Shown: piece by piece, positions 13,503 through 33,706 of the stretch | Layout: each line of letters begins with the position of its first letter | Position numbering within the stretch: position 1 is the first letter of the stretch | Source: a virus | Taxonomy: Duplodnaviria > Heunggongvirae > Uroviricota > Caudoviricetes | Virus record (IMG/VR): IMGVR_UViG_3300014886_000120 | DNA: 33,706 bases | Strand: one strand, 5' to 3' | Position numbers and translations under genes: made by a program | Notes under the pieces: model-generated | What the model was told of the DNA's origin: nothing | The model's database searches: none | The model's input: only the letters and a program-made list of their open reading frames with translations

Positions 13503-16500
13503 ATTCTAATCAAGTTTCTAGGTACAAGAGGATACGTAGATACTAGCTCCAGGACACACAAGAATAGGGCTTCCATAATAGTCACATCCATGGATACTTC
13601 ACTTCTAATAGACTTTGGAGACCTTTATTCTCCAGAACAGTTCCCGGAAGTTAGTAATCTTCTGATAACCCATAAACATCCAGACCATATTGGTGGAATA
13701 TTGAAAGATGAGTTCAAGGAAAAGAAGGAACTGTATGATCATGTCAGTCTTTACCTATCTAATCAAGCTTATGTCAAGGAGCTGCCGTCATTCCTTAAAG
13801 TTACTAAGTTCAAGAGAAGAGACAGCTTTAAGATAGGAAGCTTCAATATCACAAGTGTTCCAGTCTTACATAGTGTCAAAGCTCCAAACGTAGCTTTGTT
13901 CATAAGTGATAACAAACACAAGATATGCTATTGTTCAGATGTAGTAAGCATCAGGAAAGCTGATAGAGACAAGTATCTGAAGGGATGTAGTGTCTTTATA
14001 GGGGACCTAAGTACTCACAAGAAGGGTGGTTTAATAAGGAAAGCTAAACATGATGAAGGTACCTTGATAGGACATGCAGATATTAGAACTCAGCTAGCCT
14101 GGTGTAGGGATGCTGGGGTTCCAGTCTGTATCTTCACTCATCTTGGGACTGATCCTATTGAGCTAGGAGATGGAAAGCTTAAAGATTTATTATCCACATT
14201 AGAAAATAAATATGGGGTAAAGATAATTATAGCTAAAGATGGAGACAAGTATGACATAGAGGATTTGGTGAATATGTCAGAAAGAGAGTTATTAAGGGAA
14301 GAGCTTCAGCTTAAACCAGAAGATGTAGAACCTATAACCCCTAAGGCTTTTCCAAAGACCCCAGAGTATGGATTAATCCTTGTAGCTCCACATCCAGAAC
14401 TGATATGGAAGGGAGAAAAGACAGCTATTGTAAAGTCTGTTAAGCTAAAGTCACATATCAATGAGCCTCTATATCTCTTGGATATAAAGAACAAGCTGTG
14501 CTATGGTATCATTCAGCTCAAGGAACCAGTGGAAATATCCAGAGAAGATTTCATCAAGAGATATGATGAGCATAGAGTCAGTGAAGAAGAAAGAAAGAGA
14601 TGGGCTAAGAAAGAACCTAGCTGGAACAAGTTCCCCTTATACCTATACGAGTTCTTCTTTACCAAGTTTGAAGCTCCAAAGCCCATAAGAGTGAAGGTCA
14701 AGGGACCACAGATATTCATCAAAGCTTCCAATATCGAGTTCTTATCTCCTAAGCTTATGACGATGGAAGAGCTAGAGTATTTCCATAGCTATTATCATTC
14801 TTGTGGAGAGCTACTTTCACCATGTTGCAAAGAGCATTATGTCATAGCTTTGGAAATGTTGAATAGAGGTATTCCCCATCTATCTAGAACTCCATGTGAT
14901 AGACCGATAGAGCTTATCACCAAGGAAACTGCAGAATACATCAGAAACATCAAGGATGTAGAAGACCGTCCATTAGGAGATGACTTCAGGATAGTATTAG
15001 CTTGGTACTCGTCCATTAGAAGAGGAAAGAAGCTGAAACGAAAGGATGGTACACCTATAACTATAGAAGATTGTAGAAAGCTTGGTCTGGCTATAGTTAA
15101 GGAAATGATAAGGAGACATAAAGAGTACGAGAAGAAAGGTATCACCAAGTTTACATTCAACAAGCCGGAAACATACAAGAAATATGCCAGGGAACTGTTT
15201 GAGTGGATAATCAAGCAGATAGGGAAGGACAACATACCATGGAAAGAAGAGAAAGAACTGAACTATATCTCTCAGATATACTCTGTACTACCTGCTGGTA
15301 TGAGGATAGAAGACATAGATCCTCCTTACGTTATAGGACTGACAGATGAAGAGCTTATCAAGCTATGGGAGTTCCTGGTTGACAAGGCAAATGAAAGCGC
15401 TAGTTCACCAGAAACGATACCAGAGAACATCCATGATGCTGGAGTATTTGTAGGGATTGAGCTCTACAAGAGAGGCTTGTGGGATGATGTAAAAGGTGAC
15501 AATATCCTTACTAAAGCTGTAGAGCTTGAGGTTTCTGAATATCCAACTCCTAAGGGCTTGTTCTTTTCTGAAGCTGAAGAATCAGAAGCTATCTATCCTG
15601 AGCCAGAGGGAGAATACATCAAGCTGGAAGATGTACTGAAAGCTTTACCTCCTCATTTGATAGTTAAGGGAGAACCTTATGGGGCCTATCTTACTGGAAG
15701 AATAGTGAATGAGGGAAGGATACCAAAAGATCATGACATAGATTTACTGTTTAGACAGCTGCCTGATCCTAGGATAGTTGAAGCTGTAAAAAACCTGAAG
15801 CCTGAATGGTTAGCTAGGAGGATACACCCAGTCTTTGATCCATTTGGTCCATACATAGGATACAGCCTAAACGTCTATAGATATGGCTTCTTTAAGCTAC
15901 CTGACAATCTTATGATCAGAGACTTTGGTCCATACAGGTTTGAGAAGCTAGCTAAAGAAATCAAAGTAGGAAAGCCTATGATAGGTGTAAAACCACGTAG
16001 TGGCTTTGGTAAGTTTGAATTCTGGGATCCAGAGGAAATGTACAGGGAGTGGGCATCAAAATACTTAGAGGATGGGATATTCGTACAAGAGAAAGTAGAT
16101 GGAAGACGTATGCAGCTGCATGTAGACAAGGCAAAGAAGCTGGTTAAGATAATCACAGAGGACAGACAGAGAGACAGAGCTAGCCAGTTTCCAAACATAG
16201 TAAAAGAAATCATGGATAAGCTCAATTGTGAGAGCTGCATACTTGATGGAGAGATGGTAGCTTTTGAGATACCTCCTAACAAGGTGGTTAAGTCTGCCAA
16301 GCTCAAGAGACAGATGGATCTTATGGAAAGAGAAGACACTGCAGCTATAACTGTCGGAAAGGTTCCTCCAGAGCTTGAGGACAGAATAGTGTATGTTTTC
16401 TACGATATTATGTACCTGGATGGTAAGCCTGTAGTAGACTTGCCATATTCTGAAAGGTTCAAGCTGTTAAAGAAAGTGGTTCCCAGAGATGCTCGTTATC

Positions 16501-18317
16501 TGGACTTGGTAAGAAGTATATTTACAGATACACCTGGAGAATTCTTAAGAGCTGTGGAAAAGATGAGAAGAGCTCCTGGTTCAGAGGGTGTAGTAGCCAA
16601 AGCAGCTACCATGAAGTACCCAGTAAAGTATAAGGGAGAAAACAGAAGTGACGAGATGTGCATCACTGGAGGAAGCTATATTCTTACAGAGGAAGGTTTC
16701 AAGAAGGTATGTAACCTTAAAGTTGGAGACCTAGTATTTGCAAAAGATGGTAAATTACATAGAGTGCTAAGAATATTGAAGCGTTTGGTTGGTAGTGAAG
16801 AGAAGCTTTATGATGTCAGAAGCAAAAACCCAGGAGGTATAAAAGTGAGGTTAACAGGAGATCACAGAGTTATGACTAGAGAGGGATGGGAAAGAGCTGA
16901 AAATATTAACAATAAGCTGGGAGTCCCTATAAGAATTAGCCTTCCAGAAGAACCATACCCCAAGCGTCTTGAGCTAGAGTGGCATGGATATAAGAAAATT
17001 ATTAAGTGTACAGATGATTTCTGGAAATTTATTGGTTTTTGGTTAGCTGAGGGAAGCTTAGGAAATAATAGATGCAAGAGCTATAAGAGAGGAGAACTAA
17101 CATTCTCTCAAAAAGATCCAAAAGTCTTTGAATACTATGCTGACCTAGCTGATAAGCTTTTAGGTGTTAAAGGGAAGAGATATCAGTATAACGGAATCAA
17201 TATCTATATAGTATGGGATAAGCCTTTCTGTGATTGGCTATCTAGACATTTCTTAGATAGAAATGATGATAAGACTATACCCTGGTTTATAGGAAGCTTG
17301 CCAGAATCCTCGTTTAATGCATTATGGAATGGCTATAGAGATGGAGATAGATGTCATAAGTTCTCAGATGATATAATTACTTCAGATCCATCCTTAGCTG
17401 GTAGAATGTATGCTATCTTGCTTCATAGAAACGAGACAGTCAGTGTGGTATGGAGAAAGACTAGGAAGAGAAATTCCTTTATTATTAGAAGGTTAAAACG
17501 GCCAATAACTTCCTATAGAATAGAAGCTAAAAGAGTCTATACTGATAAGAAAGACTGGGTATATGATATTGAAGTGGAAGGAGAGGAGTCTTTCTTATCT
17601 GGCAATATAGTACTACATAATTGTAAGCTCAAGAACCTTAAAGAGATAGATGTCATGGTATGGGATGTAATAGAAAAGAAACGTAAAGAGACTGGAGAAC
17701 CCCTAGGGAGCTACATGTATATCTCAGTATATCTTATCCCAGAAGAGAAGGTTGATGACTTTCCTAAGAACAAGGTGGTAGAGTACAAGGGAAAACACTA
17801 TGCCATCATAGGTAGAACTTATGCTACTAACGTCAAGTGTAAGAGAGGTGACATCATAACAGTCATGCCTATCAGGATAAGGAGATATGAGAGTAAAGAA
17901 GGCAAGTATTTCTATACCTGGATGTTCCCTTACTTCAAAGAAAAGAGATCAGACAAAAAAGACCCAGACACACTTACTACTGTAGAGAGAATAGCTAAGC
18001 TTGGTACAAGACCAGCCAAGCTTACTGAGACACTTGAAGAGACTATTGTGGTTAAGCTGCCTATCTGTGAGTTCAGTGAATACCCAGAGATATGTCCCCT
18101 AAAGAAGATATTTGGTAAGCCAAGGTACCATGAACTTACTATCTTGAAGATTGAACACCTTAGGTTCCCGGTAGCTTGCCCATTAGCTAATATCAGAAGA
18201 TGTGTATTCCTAAAAGATTATTACTATGGGTTTAAAACTTACAAGAGAGGAAAGCTATCTAATCTGGATGGTGAATCTAACATTATAGTAGTAGGAGATG
18301 AAGAGTATGAAGATTAG
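13503..18317 (+). CDS. Multidomain protein (~1604 aa): MBL-fold hydrolase, ASCH-like domain, His/helical domains, minimal nucleotidyltransferase, ATP-dependent DNA ligase (adenylation + OB) with intein, Cys-rich tail
   Basis: MBL HKHPDH at 13671-13688 plus downstream H, D, H, H motifs; ASCH-like GLILVAPHPELIWKGEKTAIVKS; NTase LTGRIVNEG...DIDLL; ligase motifs EKVDGRR, LDGEM, FYDIMY, EGVVAK, (M)CKLK and FPYFKEKRSDK. Start placed at ATT 13503 (see findings); ORF track start is ATG 13590. Confidence 0.85.
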   Translation: MLIKFLGTRGYVDTSSRTHKNRASIIVTSMDTSLLIDFGDLYSPEQFPEVSNLLITHKHPDHIGGILKDEFKEKKELYDHVSLYLSNQAYVKELPSFLKVTKFKRRDSFKIGSFNITSVPVLHSVKAPNVALFISDNKHKICYCSDVVSIRKADRDKYLKGCSVFIGDLSTHKKGGLIRKAKHDEGTLIGHADIRTQLAWCRDAGVPVCIFTHLGTDPIELGDGKLKDLLSTLENKYGVKIIIAKDGDKYDIEDLVNMSERELLREELQLKPEDVEPITPKAFPKTPEYGLILVAPHPELIWKGEKTAIVKSVKLKSHINEPLYLLDIKNKLCYGIIQLKEPVEISREDFIKRYDEHRVSEEERKRWAKKEPSWNKFPLYLYEFFFTKFEAPKPIRVKVKGPQIFIKASNIEFLSPKLMTMEELEYFHSYYHSCGELLSPCCKEHYVIALEMLNRGIPHLSRTPCDRPIELITKETAEYIRNIKDVEDRPLGDDFRIVLAWYSSIRRGKKLKRKDGTPITIEDCRKLGLAIVKEMIRRHKEYEKKGITKFTFNKPETYKKYARELFEWIIKQIGKDNIPWKEEKELNYISQIYSVLPAGMRIEDIDPPYVIGLTDEELIKLWEFLVDKANESASSPETIPENIHDAGVFVGIELYKRGLWDDVKGDNILTKAVELEVSEYPTPKGLFFSEAEESEAIYPEPEGEYIKLEDVLKALPPHLIVKGEPYGAYLTGRIVNEGRIPKDHDIDLLFRQLPDPRIVEAVKNLKPEWLARRIHPVFDPFGPYIGYSLNVYRYGFFKLPDNLMIRDFGPYRFEKLAKEIKVGKPMIGVKPRSGFGKFEFWDPEEMYREWASKYLEDGIFVQEKVDGRRMQLHVDKAKKLVKIITEDRQRDRASQFPNIVKEIMDKLNCESCILDGEMVAFEIPPNKVVKSAKLKRQMDLMEREDTAAITVGKVPPELEDRIVYVFYDIMYLDGKPVVDLPYSERFKLLKKVVPRDARYLDLVRSIFTDTPGEFLRAVEKMRRAPGSEGVVAKAATMKYPVKYKGENRSDEMCITGGSYILTEEGFKKVCNLKVGDLVFAKDGKLHRVLRILKRLVGSEEKLYDVRSKNPGGIKVRLTGDHRVMTREGWERAENINNKLGVPIRISLPEEPYPKRLELEWHGYKKIIKCTDDFWKFIGFWLAEGSLGNNRCKSYKRGELTFSQKDPKVFEYYADLADKLLGVKGKRYQYNGINIYIVWDKPFCDWLSRHFLDRNDDKTIPWFIGSLPESSFNALWNGYRDGDRCHKFSDDIITSDPSLAGRMYAILLHRNETVSVVWRKTRKRNSFIIRRLKRPITSYRIEAKRVYTDKKDWVYDIEVEGEESFLSGNIVLHNCKLKNLKEIDVMVWDVIEKKRKETGEPLGSYMYISVYLIPEEKVDDFPKNKVVEYKGKHYAIIGRTYATNVKCKRGDIITVMPIRIRRYESKEGKYFYTWMFPYFKEKRSDKKDPDTLTTVERIAKLGTRPAKLTETLEETIVVKLPICEFSEYPEICPLKKIFGKPRYHELTILKIEHLRFPVACPLANIRRCVFLKDYYYGFKTYKRGKLSNLDGESNIIVVGDEEYED
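16659..17621 (+). mobile_element. Intein with LAGLIDADG endonuclease (321 aa) in ligase motif V
   Basis: N-terminus CITGGSYILT, C-terminus VYDIEVEG...VLHN followed by +1 Cys; LAGLIDADG-like FIGFWLAEG and LWNGYRDGD; splicing restores RSDEM-CKLK. Confidence 0.92.
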
Positions 18318-21300
18318 AAAATGGATGTTAGATGAGCTAGCTGTTCCTGAATATATAGCTAGGGAACTGACAGCTAAGTATATGGAATATGTAAAAGAAC
18401 CCAAACCATTTGTAATGCAAGCTCACTATATTGGAGATTCTCAACATGTAGACTTTAGATTTAAAGTAAATGGCTTTTTAGAAGGCTGGTCAGTACATCC
18501 CAGAGAGAGAGTGCTAGTCTGGTCCTCGAAAGGCATAGAAGCTCCAACGCTTGAGGAACTATTTTCAAGATTCAAAAATATAGAAAAGATAAATGGCTAT
18601 GAGATGGTTAGACCATCTTACTATAAAGCTCTAGCTTTCAAGGGAGGTATAGGATACTGGGTTCCAATTACAGCAATAGTCAGACATAGATATAAAGGAA
18701 AGATCTTAGAGCTTGATCAAAAGTGGGGTGTAATAAAAGTCACTCCAAACCACTCTGTCTATTCTCAGGAGTGTACTCCAGCTAAGGCTTCATCCAACCC
18801 TGAGATCCTTGGTATCAGAAACATCTCTTATTCTCCAAGAGGAGACTCTATCAAGCTCCATGCCCGAGGTCTATTTCAGAATGGTGATAAAGTACAAGCA
18901 AGAAGAAGCTTTATACCTTTACCAATTGAGCTGAGAGGTAAGCAGCTAAAAGCTTTCTTATATTTCCTTGGAGCTTTTATTGCAGAGGGATGTGTTCATA
19001 AGAAAACTGATGGAAGCTATCTAGTTCAAATTGGTAATAATAATCTTGACTTCCTTAAGAGAGTTCAACAGTCTATCTCTGATTCTCTAGGGATTACATC
19101 CTGGATATCAGGACCAGACTCAAATGGAACGTATACTCTAGGAATGTCCAATAAAACCCTCTATTACTACTTGAAGAACAATGTTGGAGCAAGTTCTCTA
19201 GAGAAACGAATTCCTCCAGACGTTCTAGCTCTAAAGTAGGACTGTCTAAAGGTACTATGGAAGTCTCTTTGGGAGGGAGATGGGTGTGATAAATGGAAGT
19301 CATTTTCAACCAGCTCGGAGGAGCTAGCTATTCAAGTATGTTTCCTGCTTGGATTGTTTGGTAGTAACTTCACTGTGAAAAAAAGTGTAGATCCCAAGAG
19401 TAGGCATTATATCTACAATATTCTTTTAGTGGACCATTATCATCTAAACAAAGCAGAACGTAAAATTGGAGAGATAGATTTTGAAGGGTATGTATATGAC
19501 CTCTCACTTGAGCCTCTTCATAACTTTGCCTGTGGTCTTGGCTTGGTAGTTTGCCATAATAGTATTGTCGGAGGTTCCAGAGATGATCCCCATACTCCTC
19601 AAAAGTTCCTAGAGAATATAGGAAAAGGGTTTAGAGCTGAGACTAAGTGTGTTAATCCATTCTGTAATGAATGGAAGTATGAGCTAATAAAGGTAGAGAA
19701 TGGCATAGTTTATGTTAGATGGAAGACAGAGGAAGAACTATCCAGTCTTACTATGGAAGAGCTAGCTCGCCAGCCTTTACAGTGGCTAAAAGTAGAAGGT
19801 AAAGTAGAACCTGGAGAGGTAGGTGCTGGAGAAGAAGCTCCAGGTGAGTTTAAGATTCTTACTAAAGGCTTACTAATAACTGGAGCTCAAAAGCCATACT
19901 TCCATGAATATTTCATTAAAGACAACAAGTACTTCAAAGACTGGACCAGAATAGTCCTAAGAGCCATTAAGGTTAAGAAGATAGACCCTAAGACTAAGAA
20001 GCCTATACCTGGAGAATATGAACGTATGTGGAGATTTATGATACCAAAAGATCAGAAGCCTTATGCATTAAGCAAAAGAGCTATAGAGCATAAATGGAAG
20101 CCTCCTCAAAACATCAAGTATCCATTCCCGAAAGAATGGGCTAAGAAGAACTGGCCTAAAGAGTTTGAGAGATGGGAGCTTTACCTTAGAGGTGAACTAT
20201 CTGAACTTACCACTGTCAGGTTTACATTGGGTCTAGCTAGCTGGATGGGGCCTAGGGCTAAGACTGGAAGACAAATGCCTCAGATGAGATGGTTCCTCTT
20301 CCTGGATGACAAGGGTAAAGGAAAAGTAAGGACATTCCTGTTGGATGGATATCCACTAAAGGATGAGATAATGGCAGCTTATGAATATCCAAGAACTTCC
20401 AGGAAATGGCTGGACTATCAAGGTGAGACTGAACCTAACACACCCCCTGTTAACCCAAATAAAGAGCTGGTTGGCCAGTATGTCATAATAGACAGTGGAA
20501 CCGTAAGCTACACTACAAGAACTGAAGATGGAGAAGAAGTGATAGAGCTAGACTTTAAGGGTAAACGTCTGAAAGGGAAATATCAGCTGAAGCAAGAAGA
20601 GAAGGGAGCTGATGTATACATATTTGAAAAGCTATCGGCCCAGGTCAGCATGGCCCAGGGAGTGTTTGTTCTTGACAAGCACTACTGGCCTGAAACGTCC
20701 AAGGAATATCACCTGGACCTTAGATTCAAGCTTCCAGAATGGGACTACCTAAAGGAGTTTAACATATGGGAAGCTAAAGGTGTGGACGATTTAAAGAAGC
20801 TTGAGGTTCCATACCCAGCTAGACTCAAGGAATGCAGTGACCTTGAATGGTTGAAGGTAAAGAAAACTGGTACCAGAATGAAAGCTTATGGTAAATGGTC
20901 CATAGCTGAGACTATAGATCATGGAAGCATAGAGATAATAGAAGATAGTCCTAGATTCATGTCCTTTAACATCAATGGAAAGAAGCTTAAGGGATACTAC
21001 ATAGCTAGGAAAGCAGATGGTCTATGGCAGTTCATGAAATCCAAGCTACCTAAACCTCTGTCTATATTTGAGAAGATGTATGAGATATTTGGTAAAGAAG
21101 GAGATCCAAGAGAAGGTAAACCATATGAACCATTCAAGATAGAGCAGAAGAGAGGATGGAACTACTTCATAGTCCATATTTATGACCTAAGAAAGTTTAC
21201 CAGAGTAGAACCAAGTGAAAAGACCAAGCTATACCTTCCTGAGCTAGACATACCTGAAGGAGTAGACATAGGGATAGGCCTTTATCCTCGTCCAGGAAAG

Positions 21301-21432
21301 ATACATGGAGCTAGAGTAGCCTACATAATATTTGACTCATCCAAGTGGACCCATGAACAAGCTATAAGATTTATTAGAGACAAGAAGCTTGATACATGGG
21401 AAGGAGAACAAATCAGGAGTAAGAGGAAATAG
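18298..21432 (+). CDS. Protein with three tandem LigD 3'-phosphoesterase (PE)-like domains plus a C-terminal domain; contains an intein and one in-frame TAG at 19237-19239 (joins ORF-track entries 18298-19239 and 19354-21432)
   Basis: Both ORFs share one frame (offset 1056 nt = 352 codons). PE motifs FVMQAH..HVDFR..GW|S and FVLDKH..HLDLR; LKVEGKVEPGEVGAG; IDSGT/IDHGS; GKRLKGKY/GKKLKGYY. Confidence 0.75.
18490..19560 (+). mobile_element. Intein with LAGLIDADG endonuclease (357 codons), interrupted by an in-frame TAG
   Basis: N-terminus SVHPRERVLV; block-B-like IKVTPNHSVY; FLGAFIAEG and LWKSLWEGDG; C-terminus VYDLSLEP.HNF...VCHN followed by +1 Ser. Confidence 0.88.
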
Positions 21433-21434
21433 AG

Positions 21435-21764
21435 TTGAATGCTATAAGCTGGATTAAACAAGTAAAGAAGTACATGAAGAAAATAGAGGAAGCTTCACCT
21501 AAGGACAGGTTAGGTTATATGTCAGAGATAGACAGATGTAACAAAGCTATATTTGCCTCTACTCAAGGATGGGAATACTGGCTATCCAATCCTACCATCA
21601 TAGACCAGTTCACTAAGGAAGAGCTTGAAGAGATGCTTGATGAGTTTAGGGAGCTAGCTCTACAGTTCCTAAGGAACGACATTAAATGGACAGAGCATTT
21701 ACTGGGCAAGGCTCAGATGTCAAAGCTAAAGTCTAGCTCTAGCTCCAGAAGATACATCACATAA
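21435..21764 (+). CDS. DUF2153-like conserved archaeal protein
   Basis: Pattern DRL.Y..EI..C..AI..S..GW..WL.NP.I...F.KEELEE......RELA..FL..DIK.T recognised from memory as DUF2153. Confidence 0.7.
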   Translation: MNAISWIKQVKKYMKKIEEASPKDRLGYMSEIDRCNKAIFASTQGWEYWLSNPTIIDQFTKEELEEMLDEFRELALQFLRNDIKWTEHLLGKAQMSKLKSSSSSRRYIT

Positions 21765-31362: not shown

Positions 31363-33706
31363 ATGAGTGAAGCTAGCATTATAGCAGAACTAATAGATGA
31401 AGCTGCCTATCTGAGGAGGAGACTGAAAGAGCTAGAAAGCAAGGAGAGAGAGATAGTTGAGCTCACAGAAATAAGCTCTGCTTCTAGCTTCAAGATAGAA
31501 GAGGAACTGGCTGGTAAGCTCAAGATTTCTGGGATAGCTTTAGCTGAGGGTGTATGGAATGGGCTGATCTATTCTAAGGAAGAAGTAAAGAAAATGTATG
31601 ACAATTACAAAGAAGAGCTTTCAAGCCTGGAAATGAAGGTAGAGCATGAACGTACTGGAGAGTTCAGAGACAGAGTAGTAGGTAGACACATAGAGTCAGA
31701 ATGGTCTGACACGTTAAAAGCAGTTCTTTACAGGGCTATAGTAGATGATCCGAAAGCTATAGAGAAGATCAAATCTGGAGAGCTTACAGCCACAAGCATG
31801 AAGATTGAACTAAAGAAGATAAATGGAAAGGCAGTAGACCTACGTCCAATAGACAACTCTCTTACTGCAGCTCCAGCATGCCACACATGCATGATTGTGT
31901 CAAAAGAAGAGCTAAGCTCTAACCTGGAATCTCATGGTTATCGAGTTTATGGGGTATTAAAAGAAAACATTATAAATAATGGTAAAGATATTACAAGAGA
32001 GGTAGTGCATATGAGTGAAGAAAAGAATGAAAAGCCTAAAGAGGAACATACAGAAGAGACCTATGAACCTGAAGAGTACTTTGAGCTTAATGAACCAATG
32101 GTAGCTGTTCTTCCAGAGCTTGAGAAGCAAGAGCCTGAAGAGATAGAGCTAGAGTTTATGCCTCTCCAGCAAGCTATCAAGAGAAAGAGGATAATCTACG
32201 ATTTCTTTGAACCTGGCAAGTATCCAGTGTCCAGAAAGAAGGTTAAGAGGATCAGAGGATATTATTACTATCACCCGTACTACCCATACGGTGAAGGTGG
32301 ATACTACTATCCAGTCCCCTATTACTACTATCCATCTGTCAAGCCCAGTAAGAAAGGTCCATACCCATACTATTATCCAGTGCCATATTACTACTACTAT
32401 CCATACTATGGGTACCATTCATTAGAGGATGTCCTATCTGAGACAATGCCTGAGCTATCTCAGAAAGAGCTTGAGAACCTAGTGAAGGAGAACAGGGCTG
32501 AGAAAGTAGAGGGTGAAATGGGAGTATCCTACTATTACTATCCTCATTATCCAGCTCATTATCCAAAGTATTATTACTACTATCCATACTACTATTCCTA
32601 TAAGGGAGAAATCTACAGTCCAGAAGACTTTGGGACTGAAGAACAGTCTGGAGAGTTCAAGATAGCTAAGAACAAGAAGACAGGGAAGTTTGTAGTCTTC
32701 CAAGCTACCGGAAAAGAAGGGTTTGGAGCTTGGAAGATAGTGAGACAGTTTGATACTGAAGAGGAAGCTAGAGAGTTTATAAAGAAACAGCAAGGTGAAA
32801 AGCTAGCTGGACCTAGAACAGACGAAGAGAGAGCTAAGGCCCACTTTGGAATATCAGACGAGGAATGGGAGAAGCTCACTCCAGAAGAGAGACAGGCCCT
32901 CATTGACAAGCTGCCTCCAAGAGGCTCAGCTGGACAAGCTAAGGTGAAATGTCCGGTATGTGGACAAGAGTTTGATACCAAGGATGAAATGATAGATCAC
33001 TTTAACAAGGAGCATGCTGAAAAGTATGGTAAGTATGGTGAAGGTAAATACCCAGAGTCTGAAGCTGAAGAGCAATCAGAAATGAGTGACGAAGAGCTAG
33101 CCAGAGGAAAGAAGACTAAATGCCCAGTATGTGAGAAAGAATTTGACAGCTTTGCAGCCTTTGTTAGACACTGGAACGAGGAGCATAAGGATGAGTATGG
33201 GGAATACAAGACTGCCAAGAAGCTAGCTAAGCTTTTGAAGGATACTGAGCTCATAGAAAAGATTCTGAACCCAGTAATTCAGGAGCTAATGGAGGAAGAA
33301 GGTGAAGAGGGTGAGGCTGAGTCCTCAGAAGCTGAAGCTGAGTCCTCAGAAGCTGAGAGTGAGGAAAGTCCAAGTCAAGAAGCTCAGGCTGGAGAGGGAG
33401 AACAAGAAGGAGATGAGACACCGGTAGAGGAAAGAACAGAGAAGACAGAAAAAGAGAAAACAGAAGAAGAAGAAGAAGAAGAAGAAGAAGAAGAAGAAGA
33501 AGAAGAAGAAGAAGAAGAAGAAGAAGAGGGATCACCAGAAGAGGAACCAACAGAGGGAGCGCCACCTACAGAAGAAAAACCTACTGAGGGAGCTTCCACC
33601 AAGACGGAAGAAAAGCCTTCAGCTCCAGTCCTCACAGTAGAGGACATCCTAAAGAAAACCAGAGAAGACAGACACTTCTTAGCTGACCTACTAATAGCCT
33701 TAGAGA
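31363..33706 (+). CDS. Prohead (capsid maturation) protease fused to a scaffold-like region; 3'-partial, at least 781 codons; absent from the ORF track because it has no stop in the window
   Basis: I translated it by hand with no stop found. Protease-like LKISGIALAEGVWNG..YSKEE, MKVEH, VVGR, IKSGELTATS, DNSLTAAPACHTC; then poly-Tyr tracts, two C2H2 fingers (CPVC..H...H) and an acidic tail. Confidence 0.85.
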   Translation, partial: MSEASIIAELIDEAAYLRRRLKELESKEREIVELTEISSASSFKIEEELAGKLKISGIALAEGVWNGLIYSKEEVKKMYDNYKEELSSLEMKVEHERTGEFRDRVVGRHIESEWSDTLKAVLYRAIVDDPKAIEKIKSGELTATSMKIELKKINGKAVDLRPIDNSLTAAPACHTCMIVSKEELSSNLESHGYRVYGVLKENIINNGKDITREVVHMSEEKNEKPKEEHTEETYEPEEYFELNEPMVAVLPELEKQEPEEIELEFMPLQQAIKRKRIIYDFFEPGKYPVSRKKVKRIRGYYYYHPYYPYGEGGYYYPVPYYYYPSVKPSKKGPYPYYYPVPYYYYYPYYGYHSLEDVLSETMPELSQKELENLVKENRAEKVEGEMGVSYYYYPHYPAHYPKYYYYYPYYYSYKGEIYSPEDFGTEEQSGEFKIAKNKKTGKFVVFQATGKEGFGAWKIVRQFDTEEEAREFIKKQQGEKLAGPRTDEERAKAHFGISDEEWEKLTPEERQALIDKLPPRGSAGQAKVKCPVCGQEFDTKDEMIDHFNKEHAEKYGKYGEGKYPESEAEEQSEMSDEELARGKKTKCPVCEKEFDSFAAFVRHWNEEHKDEYGEYKTAKKLAKLLKDTELIEKILNPVIQELMEEEGEEGEAESSEAEAESSEAESEESPSQEAQAGEGEQEGDETPVEERTEKTEKEKTEEEEEEEEEEEEEEEEEEEEEEGSPEEEPTEGAPPTEEKPTEGASTKTEEKPSAPVLTVEDILKKTREDRHFLADLLIALE
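33316..33357 (+). repeat. Tandem 21-nt duplication (GCTGAGTCCTCAGAAGCTGAR x2; AESSEAE)
   Basis: Read directly; one mismatch in the last base. Confidence 0.9.
33463..33525 (+). repeat. Perfect (GAA)21 microsatellite encoding poly-Glu (22 E including the following GAG)
   Basis: Counted directly: 6 GAA at 33463-33480 plus 15 at 33481-33525. Confidence 0.95.

Follow-up and report, generated by a model that had tools for sequence, protein, structure and literature searches.

A viral gene with three tandem LigD-type phosphoesterase folds and an intein, candidate partner of an adjacent DNA ligase

Introduction

What would a virus do with three copies of a DNA end-healing fold in one gene, and can these copies still be enzymes when residues essential to their known relatives are missing? 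The question is raised by a gene on the plus strand (18298..21432) of IMG/VR record IMGVR_UViG_3300014886_000120. The stretch that was analysed, hereafter the window, is 33,706 nucleotides long and part of a contig of 115,870 bp. The gene encodes an N-extein, an intein and a C-extein, and its product contains three phosphoesterase (PE) domains of the type found in LigD. At a probability of roughly 0.55, we consider this product to be the 3′-end-healing subunit of a viral DNA end-repair module, with the ATP-dependent ligase encoded directly upstream as the sealing subunit. To our knowledge, LigD-type PEs form a small family whose active site differs from those of other end-healing enzymes, and they have so far been characterised only as single bacterial or archaeal domains.

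The open reading frame, as translated from the window, has 1044 codons and is broken once, by an in-frame TAG at 19237-19239. The ATG at 18307 is the likely start codon, because it has a GGAG 9 nt upstream and is also where the intact allele of the gene (protein P0196) begins; the open frame itself reaches back to 18298. Without the intein, the protein has 687 residues, comprising PE1, a Trp/Pro-rich linker, PE2, PE3 and a C-terminal domain of 113 residues.

Three phosphoesterase folds in one gene

A first-pass annotation, made from the nucleotide letters, had proposed three PE-like domains in tandem. Superposition on LigD PE, set beforehand as a check that could refute this, bore the proposal out: all three domains superpose on solved LigD-type phosphoesterases. 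PE2, PE3 and the C-terminal domain were examined in an AlphaFold model built from the C-extein of the window itself (predicted local distance difference test score, pLDDT, 84.8). PE1 is split by the intein, and its fold was judged on a model of the inteinless homologue P0002 (63% identical, pLDDT 86). In these models, PE2 (C-extein residues 218-360) matched MbaPE (3P43) with Z 15.9 and a root-mean-square deviation of 2.3 Å over 119 of 124 residues, and PE3 (C-extein residues 366-494) matched CkoPE (3P4H) with Z 15.9 and 2.2 Å over 116 of 118 residues. PE1 of P0002 matched 3P43 with Z 12.4 and 2.4 Å over 123 of 124 residues (Foldseek template modelling score 0.76 by target). The next unrelated folds reached Z 3-4, and an exhaustive search gave nothing else above Z 4.4.

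Sequence profiles of the domains, built from 31 homologues and run against the PDB sequences, agreed with the models. PE3 is the domain nearest to canonical PE in sequence (E 5.6e-13 to 3P4H and 4e-9 to 3P43). The PE1 profile matched 3P43 (E 7.7e-4) and four more PE entries, and the PE2 profile matched 3P4H (E 7e-3). Profiles were needed for this, as a single-sequence search of the PDB sequences with the C-extein returned only chance ephrin matches. Compared with each other by hhalign, PE1 and PE3 were related with 94.9% probability and PE2 and PE3 with 96.0%; PE1 against PE2 was weak alone (34%), and their kinship runs via PE3 and structure.

The domain coordinates of the first-pass annotation were accurate. 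Position 18406 falls on the PFVMQAH strand of PE1, 20218-20625 lies within PE2, and 20659-21045 corresponds to PE3. By our delimitation, and all on the plus strand, the N-terminal part of PE1 (strands β1-β3) spans 18385..18489 and its C-terminal part, ending with a GAG motif, 19561..20016. A conserved helical linker rich in Trp and Pro follows (20017..20208); it packs on PE1, with a pLDDT above 90 in the P0002 model. PE2 occupies 20209..20652 (model match 20212-20640) and PE3 20665..21084 (model match 20656-21042). Within PE1, a hairpin insertion of 39 residues (19648-19764) carries two Cys (CVNPFC...). This insertion is optional, being found in only part of the family, and was modelled at lower confidence.

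The conserved C-terminal α/β domain (21091..21429, plus strand, 113 residues) matched neither PDB sequences nor Pfam, and among atlas features it met only unnamed viral clusters, at low recognition. Its best structural matches were unrelated α/β domains, at Z 4.4 or below.

Active-site residues

Canonical PE is a Mn-dependent 3′-phosphodiesterase/monoesterase with six essential residues. The Mn ligands are His42, His48 and Asp50, the phosphate is bound by Arg52 and His84, and Tyr88 positions water (PMC8656161, PMC3082917). Changing His84 to Ala is fatal in PaePE, CkoPE and MbaPE, where H84A, H51A and H78A leave ≤6% product. The Tyr-to-Ala change retains part of the diesterase activity, and Tyr88 is needed mainly for the monoesterase step (PMC8656161, PMC3082917).

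PE1 and PE3 keep the first four of these residues, as had been noticed at first pass. They are H43, H50, D52 and R54 in PE1 (18424-18459) and H795, H805, D807 and R809 in PE3 (20680-20724). All four are invariant in 31-32 family members and are present in ≥97% of more than 140 representatives, in PE1 as in PE3. The other two are lost from both domains. HMMER alignments to 3P43 and 3P4H placed RQPLQW (19768-19785) in PE1 and ECSDLEW (20830-20850) in PE3 over the canonical EDHPxxY motif, so that Gln492 and Ser847 stand at the His84 position and Trp496 and Trp851 at the Tyr88 position. The earlier annotation had reached the same view of this motif, and the check set for it beforehand, re-alignment, restored neither His84 nor Tyr88. 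For PE1 such a restoration is not available at all, because inteinless homologues that lack the PE1 insertion have no His between the equivalent of R76 and the GAG motif.

The replacements are themselves conserved. Among closer homologues, PE1 has an invariant Gln at position 84 followed by a conserved Pro, an invariant Trp at position 88, and an equally invariant Lys three residues before the Gln. In the window this motif is Q492-P-x-x-W496 (19771-19785), just behind the hairpin insertion, and the Lys is Lys450 (19645). Residues were also counted in 147 PE1 domains from representatives at 50% identity, with gaps left out of the counts. The ligands were kept in nearly all (H42 129/133, H48 141/142, D50 141/142, R52 142/142), as were the Lys at −3 (140/147), Pro85 (142/147) and Trp88 (144/147). 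Position 84 was Gln in 122 of the 147, Glu in 18 and His in 2. The family pattern of PE3 comprises the same His/His/Asp/Arg set, Lys at −3, Cys at −1, Asp at +1 and Trp at position 88 (152/167), along with an invariant Glu at the position of Ser61; here position 84 is variable. In the window, the PE3 residues beyond the four ligands are E820, K844, C846 and W851. The new invariant Lys, Gln, Cys and Glu look like the marks of a remodelled rather than a decayed site.

PE2 has the fold without the histidines, in line with the first-pass view of it. Ala, Arg, Phe and Phe occupy the positions of His42, His48, Asp50 and Arg52, and none of the six residues is kept. Invariance is limited to G651 and R658, both within its enlarged β1-β2 loop, and Trp704 stands at the Tyr88 position, which is thus Trp in all three domains. 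The annotation had described a graded loss of catalytic residues along the array. The loss was confirmed; a monotonic gradient was not, as the canonical residues number 4/6, 0/6 and 4/6 from PE1 to PE3.

An intein in PE1

The intein of 357 codons (residues 65-421; 18490..19560, plus strand) is of the class-1 type with a LAGLIDADG homing endonuclease, and sits in strand β3 of PE1. It starts with Ser1 (S65), exactly 10 residues after HVDFR as first reported, has the block B motif TPNH at residue 149 (18742), and ends in VVCHN before Ser+1 (residues 417-422), with the C-terminal junction HN|S at 19560/19561. Two LAGLIDADG motifs are found, at 18958 and 19267. Pfam LAGLIDADG_3 (PF14528) matched the first half with 31.6 bits and the second with 20.5 bits (cut-off 22.5), and a match to Intein_splicing stayed below its threshold (18.9 against 35.8 bits). 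The boundaries, taken from alignment with homologues, are secure because 31 inteinless homologues run without a gap through GW-SIVG at the junction. In the profile alignment of PE1, the insertion site adjoins the residue that aligns with active-site Ser61 in PaePE.

Inteins occur at no fewer than six sites in the family of PE arrays. Five lie in the most conserved motifs of PE1: between the two His, after GW, inside QP|xxW, after GAG and before YFHEYF. The sixth follows the invariant Gly of PE2, where P0004 carries an intein at residues 270-608 (SWMG|C...HN|SRAK). Inteins typically sit at functionally constrained positions. The enlarged β1-β2 loop of PE2 is probably important functionally, since the intein of P0004 is inserted there. 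Relatives with an intein at the same site as in the window were found neither among longer proteins nor in IMG/VR beyond this virus's own 90% cluster.

The first-pass annotation knew of no intein described in a PE domain. This stands for the literature that we searched, which held nothing on inteins in LigD-type PE or on tandem PE arrays in viruses. It does not stand for the databases, where many members of the family carry inteins, at six sites or more.

A stop codon within the intein

The TAG at 19237-19239 (plus strand) lies between the two LAGLIDADG motifs and would truncate the precursor after 313 residues. In a near-identical genome (contig L004, protein P0196) this codon is AAG (Lys). 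P0196, from the same 90% cluster, has 1041 residues and differs from the read-through product of the window at two of them, with Lys in place of the stop and Tyr for Cys two codons on. L004 is a 109.7-kb contig of an independent assembly (Logan), and differs from the window at three positions in 15,126 nt (99.98% identity). These are the change of AAG to TAG at 19237, a change at 19244 from TAT (Tyr) in L004 to TGT (Cys) in the window, 7 nt from the first, and a synonymous one at 15455. Both non-synonymous differences fall within the homing-endonuclease domain. The intein frame, broken in the window copy, is thus uninterrupted in P0196/L004, and an intact precursor exists in nature because that allele has AAG at 19237-19239.

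The TAG represents either a nonsense allele of very recent origin, sited in the intein's endonuclease portion, or else a local error. If the former, the window copy would be a fresh pseudogene, with the precursor stopped inside the intein and no PE protein made. We take this as a serious possibility, at somewhat less than even odds. It would agree with the single in-frame TAG, a codon that is the ordinary stop of 9 of the 21 open reading frames in the window, with the finding of no tRNA gene in the window, and with the position of both non-synonymous changes in the part of an intein expected to decay first. However, with only 7 nt between the two changes and no other difference in the 15 kb but 15455, an assembly or sequencing error at this spot would fit as well, and the intact allele is present on three other contigs. 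It is very improbable that the TAG is tolerated, whether by read-through or as the mark of a nascent split intein whose halves reassociate and trans-splice. The frame does carry on seamlessly past the stop, through the second LAGLIDADG motif to HN|S, but the first in-frame start beyond it is a TTG at 19354, 39 codons on, past that motif and without a Shine-Dalgarno-like sequence. Reinitiation or a split intein thus found no support. No suppressor tRNA was found in the window either. Recoding of TAG was rejected on its use as an ordinary stop, the lack of a tRNA gene and the AAG of the near-identical genome.

The upstream ligase

The gene directly upstream on the same strand (13590..18317, 1575 codons) encodes an MBL hydrolase, two unassigned regions and an ATP-dependent DNA ligase with an intein of its own. 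It overlaps the PE gene by 20 nt (18298-18317). This overlap, and the fusion of ligase and PE in the relatives P0071, P0072 and P0082, suggest that translation of the two may be coupled. P0071 joins the MBL, the ligase, the three PE domains and the C-terminal domain in a single polypeptide, and ligase-PE fusions occur in P0143 and P0164 as well. Of the 30 related loci examined, 28 have a ligase gene immediately before the PE gene and in the same orientation, and one of the other two loci is cut at the contig end.

The ligase intein (16659-17621, CITGG...VLHN|C) lies within the ligase catalytic domain. With about 23% identity and an E value of 0.011 between it and the PE intein, the two adjacent genes carry two different inteins. 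The RNA_ligase profile gives a weak match to the ligase domain as well. The MBL domain (Lactamase_B_2, 13590-14280) has a precomputed weak match to Anti-Pycsar Apyc1 (PF23023); the same gene lies at 1284-6011 in L004, and the MBL is found in some relatives of the ligase/PE module but not in others. The middle of the polyprotein, about 570 residues, matched neither Pfam nor the atlas. There, DHDIDLLF (15729-15752), after GAYLTGR, reads by eye as a G..G...DxD-like motif and resembles that of a Pol-beta-type nucleotidyltransferase, with no match in Pfam or the atlas.

The family and its viral setting

A profile of the C-extein retrieved 301 representative clusters, formed at 50% identity, at E≤1e-30; at E≤1e-10 it retrieved 759, a count that can take in ordinary PE-bearing proteins. 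The commonest architecture is PE1-PE2-PE3 with the C-terminal domain, and a two-domain form (PE1 with a degenerate PE) is also frequent. In IMG/VR, 29 viral contigs, the longest of 156 kb, carry relatives of the PE gene. No PHROGs family matched the PE protein, and tblastn found no match to it in GenBank phage records. Family members on L034 and L035 come from contigs binned with metagenome-assembled genomes of Thermoprotei and Archaeoglobales from Guaymas Basin sediments, a hint of host range or habitat.

Three distant relatives (P0195, P0183 and P0191; 1764-2049 residues) combine a (Dam-like) DNA methyltransferase, an ATP-dependent ligase and PE1-PE2 with a C-terminal head-maturation protease (phrog_3017, E 1e-32 to 1e-37). 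Because they end in this protease, they hint that the module may be targeted to the procapsid or capsid in some viruses. The window PE protein contains no head-maturation protease domain. Its C-terminal domain bore no resemblance to the protease placed after PE in the distant relatives (hhalign 0.3%), and the window ORF at 31363-33705 had no Pfam or PHROGs match to a prohead protease.

The window looks like a portion of an archaeal tailed virus, because it encodes a tail-tube protein (PF18906; 12211-13173, minus strand), a BppU-like protein, C2H2 zinc fingers and the archaeal family DUF2153. The DUF2153 gene (21435..21764, plus strand) is the downstream neighbour of the PE gene. It lies directly 3′ of the PE gene in two distinct relatives as well (the contig of L001/L005, and L006). 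Elsewhere in the locus, DUF2153 was seen in L014, L018, L025 and L028.

Proposed function

In an end-healing subunit, splicing would take out the intein and rejoin strand β3 of PE1. In both PE1 and PE3, the His-His-Asp triad would coordinate a soft divalent metal. In each, the Arg at position 52 would hold the terminal phosphate, and the invariant Lys at −3, with the Gln in PE1, would stand in for the contact made by His84. The two domains could then remove a 3′-phosphate, a 3′-ribonucleotide or another 3′-block, leaving a 3′-OH for the ligase. PE2, as a pseudoenzyme, and the C-terminal domain may serve as non-catalytic parts for nucleic-acid binding or scaffolding. We infer that PE1 and PE3 are active metal-dependent centres serving the ligase because their metal triad and Arg are invariant, because new invariant Lys, Gln, Cys and Glu have appeared, and because the PE1 motifs are intein hot spots.

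Several observations weigh against this proposal. Neither of the two putatively active domains has His84, which every one of the three characterised PEs requires, and Tyr88 is replaced by Trp. The placement of the Lys and Gln near the metal site is proposed from sequence position only. Pfam LigD_N (PF13298) scored 19.2 bits on the window protein, under its cut-off of 31.1, and the arrangement of the domains relative to each other was modelled without confidence (predicted template modelling score 0.41). Among the window ORFs, neither an AEP (POL) domain nor Ku was matched by Pfam or PHROG, and the 570 or so upstream residues without assignment remain. The window copy, moreover, has the stop codon. 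The strongest objection is that the essential His84 is gone, and on its account a role in end binding and a changed substrate, both reasonable suggestions along the lines of the first-pass annotation, are kept open.

An end-binding role would make all three domains pseudoenzymes and the protein a bridging factor that takes the place of Ku and hands ends to the ligase, with the His-His-Asp-Arg pockets of PE1 and PE3 each gripping one terminal phosphate. The His84 position, where a change to Ala abolishes activity, is Gln, Glu or variable here, Tyr88 is gone, and no Ku was seen in the window. PE2 is clearly non-catalytic yet conserved, down to the invariant Gly that an intein targets, and two like pockets per chain would suit the bridging of two ends. 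We nevertheless hold this to be unlikely, as three metal ligands and an Arg that stay strictly invariant over more than 140 diverged representatives are more typical of catalysis than of binding, and the new invariant residues round the site are as expected of remodelling. Less likely still is a different phosphoester as substrate, either RNA 2′,3′-cyclic-phosphate ends or cyclic (oligo)nucleotide defence signals, the latter in counter-defence with the neighbouring MBL. Two phosphate-proximal positions differ from canonical PE, and the weak matches of the MBL domain to Apyc1 and of the ligase domain to RNA_ligase would fit. But a DNA-ligase-type enzyme at almost every locus, often fused, fits end repair better than signal degradation; the MBL is patchy among relatives, and no polynucleotide kinase was seen.

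A further reading starts, like the end-healing one, from active PE1 and PE3. The two domains could be a new catalytic variant (His-His-Asp-Arg with Lys, Gln/Glu and Trp) with substrates unlike those of LigD PE, and the kit of ligase and triple PE could be carried in the virion, to mend or unblock the ends of the viral genome once it has been injected and host nucleases have attacked it. The fusion of distant relatives to a head-maturation protease is consistent with such packaging. We put this forward tentatively and regard it as doubtful.

The end-healing reading would suggest that tailed viruses of archaea encode DNA end repair of their own. The clade is large (at least 300 representative clusters at 50% identity), and in it the PE fold is triplicated, tied to a ligase and consistently remodelled at the site, without the essential His. 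It offers a direct biochemical test of how the PE site works and of what else it can do. The PE array is also a new host for the intein catalogue, with insertions at six sites or more, and the near-identical AAG and TAG alleles form a natural pair for probing the dependence on splicing.

Comparison with known systems

The closest known structures are the minimal archaeal PEs, CkoPE of Candidatus Korarchaeum (3P4H) and MbaPE of Methanosarcina barkeri (3P43). The window domains share their eight-stranded β-barrel (116-123 residues, 2.1-2.4 Å, Z 12-16), the archaeal setting and, in PE1 and PE3, the His-His-Asp metal triad with its phosphate-binding Arg. However, CkoPE and MbaPE are stand-alone single domains, whereas the viral protein has three copies, a linker and an additional C-terminal domain. 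Their His51/His78 has become Gln in PE1 and is variable in PE3, and their Tyr55/Tyr82 has become Trp. Further differences are the new invariant Lys, with Gln in PE1 or Cys and Glu in PE3, the middle copy without any catalytic residue, the intein insertions, and the viral, ligase-linked setting. Archaeal PE genes were reported as not clustered with repair genes (PMC3082917).

Bacterial LigD (P. aeruginosa; PE structures 3N9B, 3N9D and 2LJ6) likewise couples PE to an ATP-dependent ligase, as do the fused relatives of the viral genes, and its PE matches with Z 10-14. In contrast to LigD, no POL domain of the AEP type was recognised and no Ku gene was seen among the window ORFs. The order here is ligase then PE, an array of three replaces the one PE, the N-terminal peptide of bacterial PE (Arg14/Asp15/Glu21) is absent, and the site lacks His84 and Tyr88. 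The non-homologous end-joining set of Methanocella paludicola consists of separate Ku, Lig, Pol and PE proteins (PE 5DMP, Z 9.9-12.6). As in the window, its ligase and PE are distinct proteins that neighbour each other or cooperate, but the viral PE is triple and altered in its catalytic residues, and Ku and Pol were not identified.

The PE1 intein itself is like the LAGLIDADG inteins of phage and archaeal ligases, polymerases, ribonucleotide reductases and terminases in its Ser1, TxxH, HN+Ser and two LAGLIDADG motifs. It also shares with them a site beside the active-site residues of a nucleic-acid enzyme, and the neighbouring ligase gene bears an intein too. It differs from them in its host protein, which here is a LigD-type PE.

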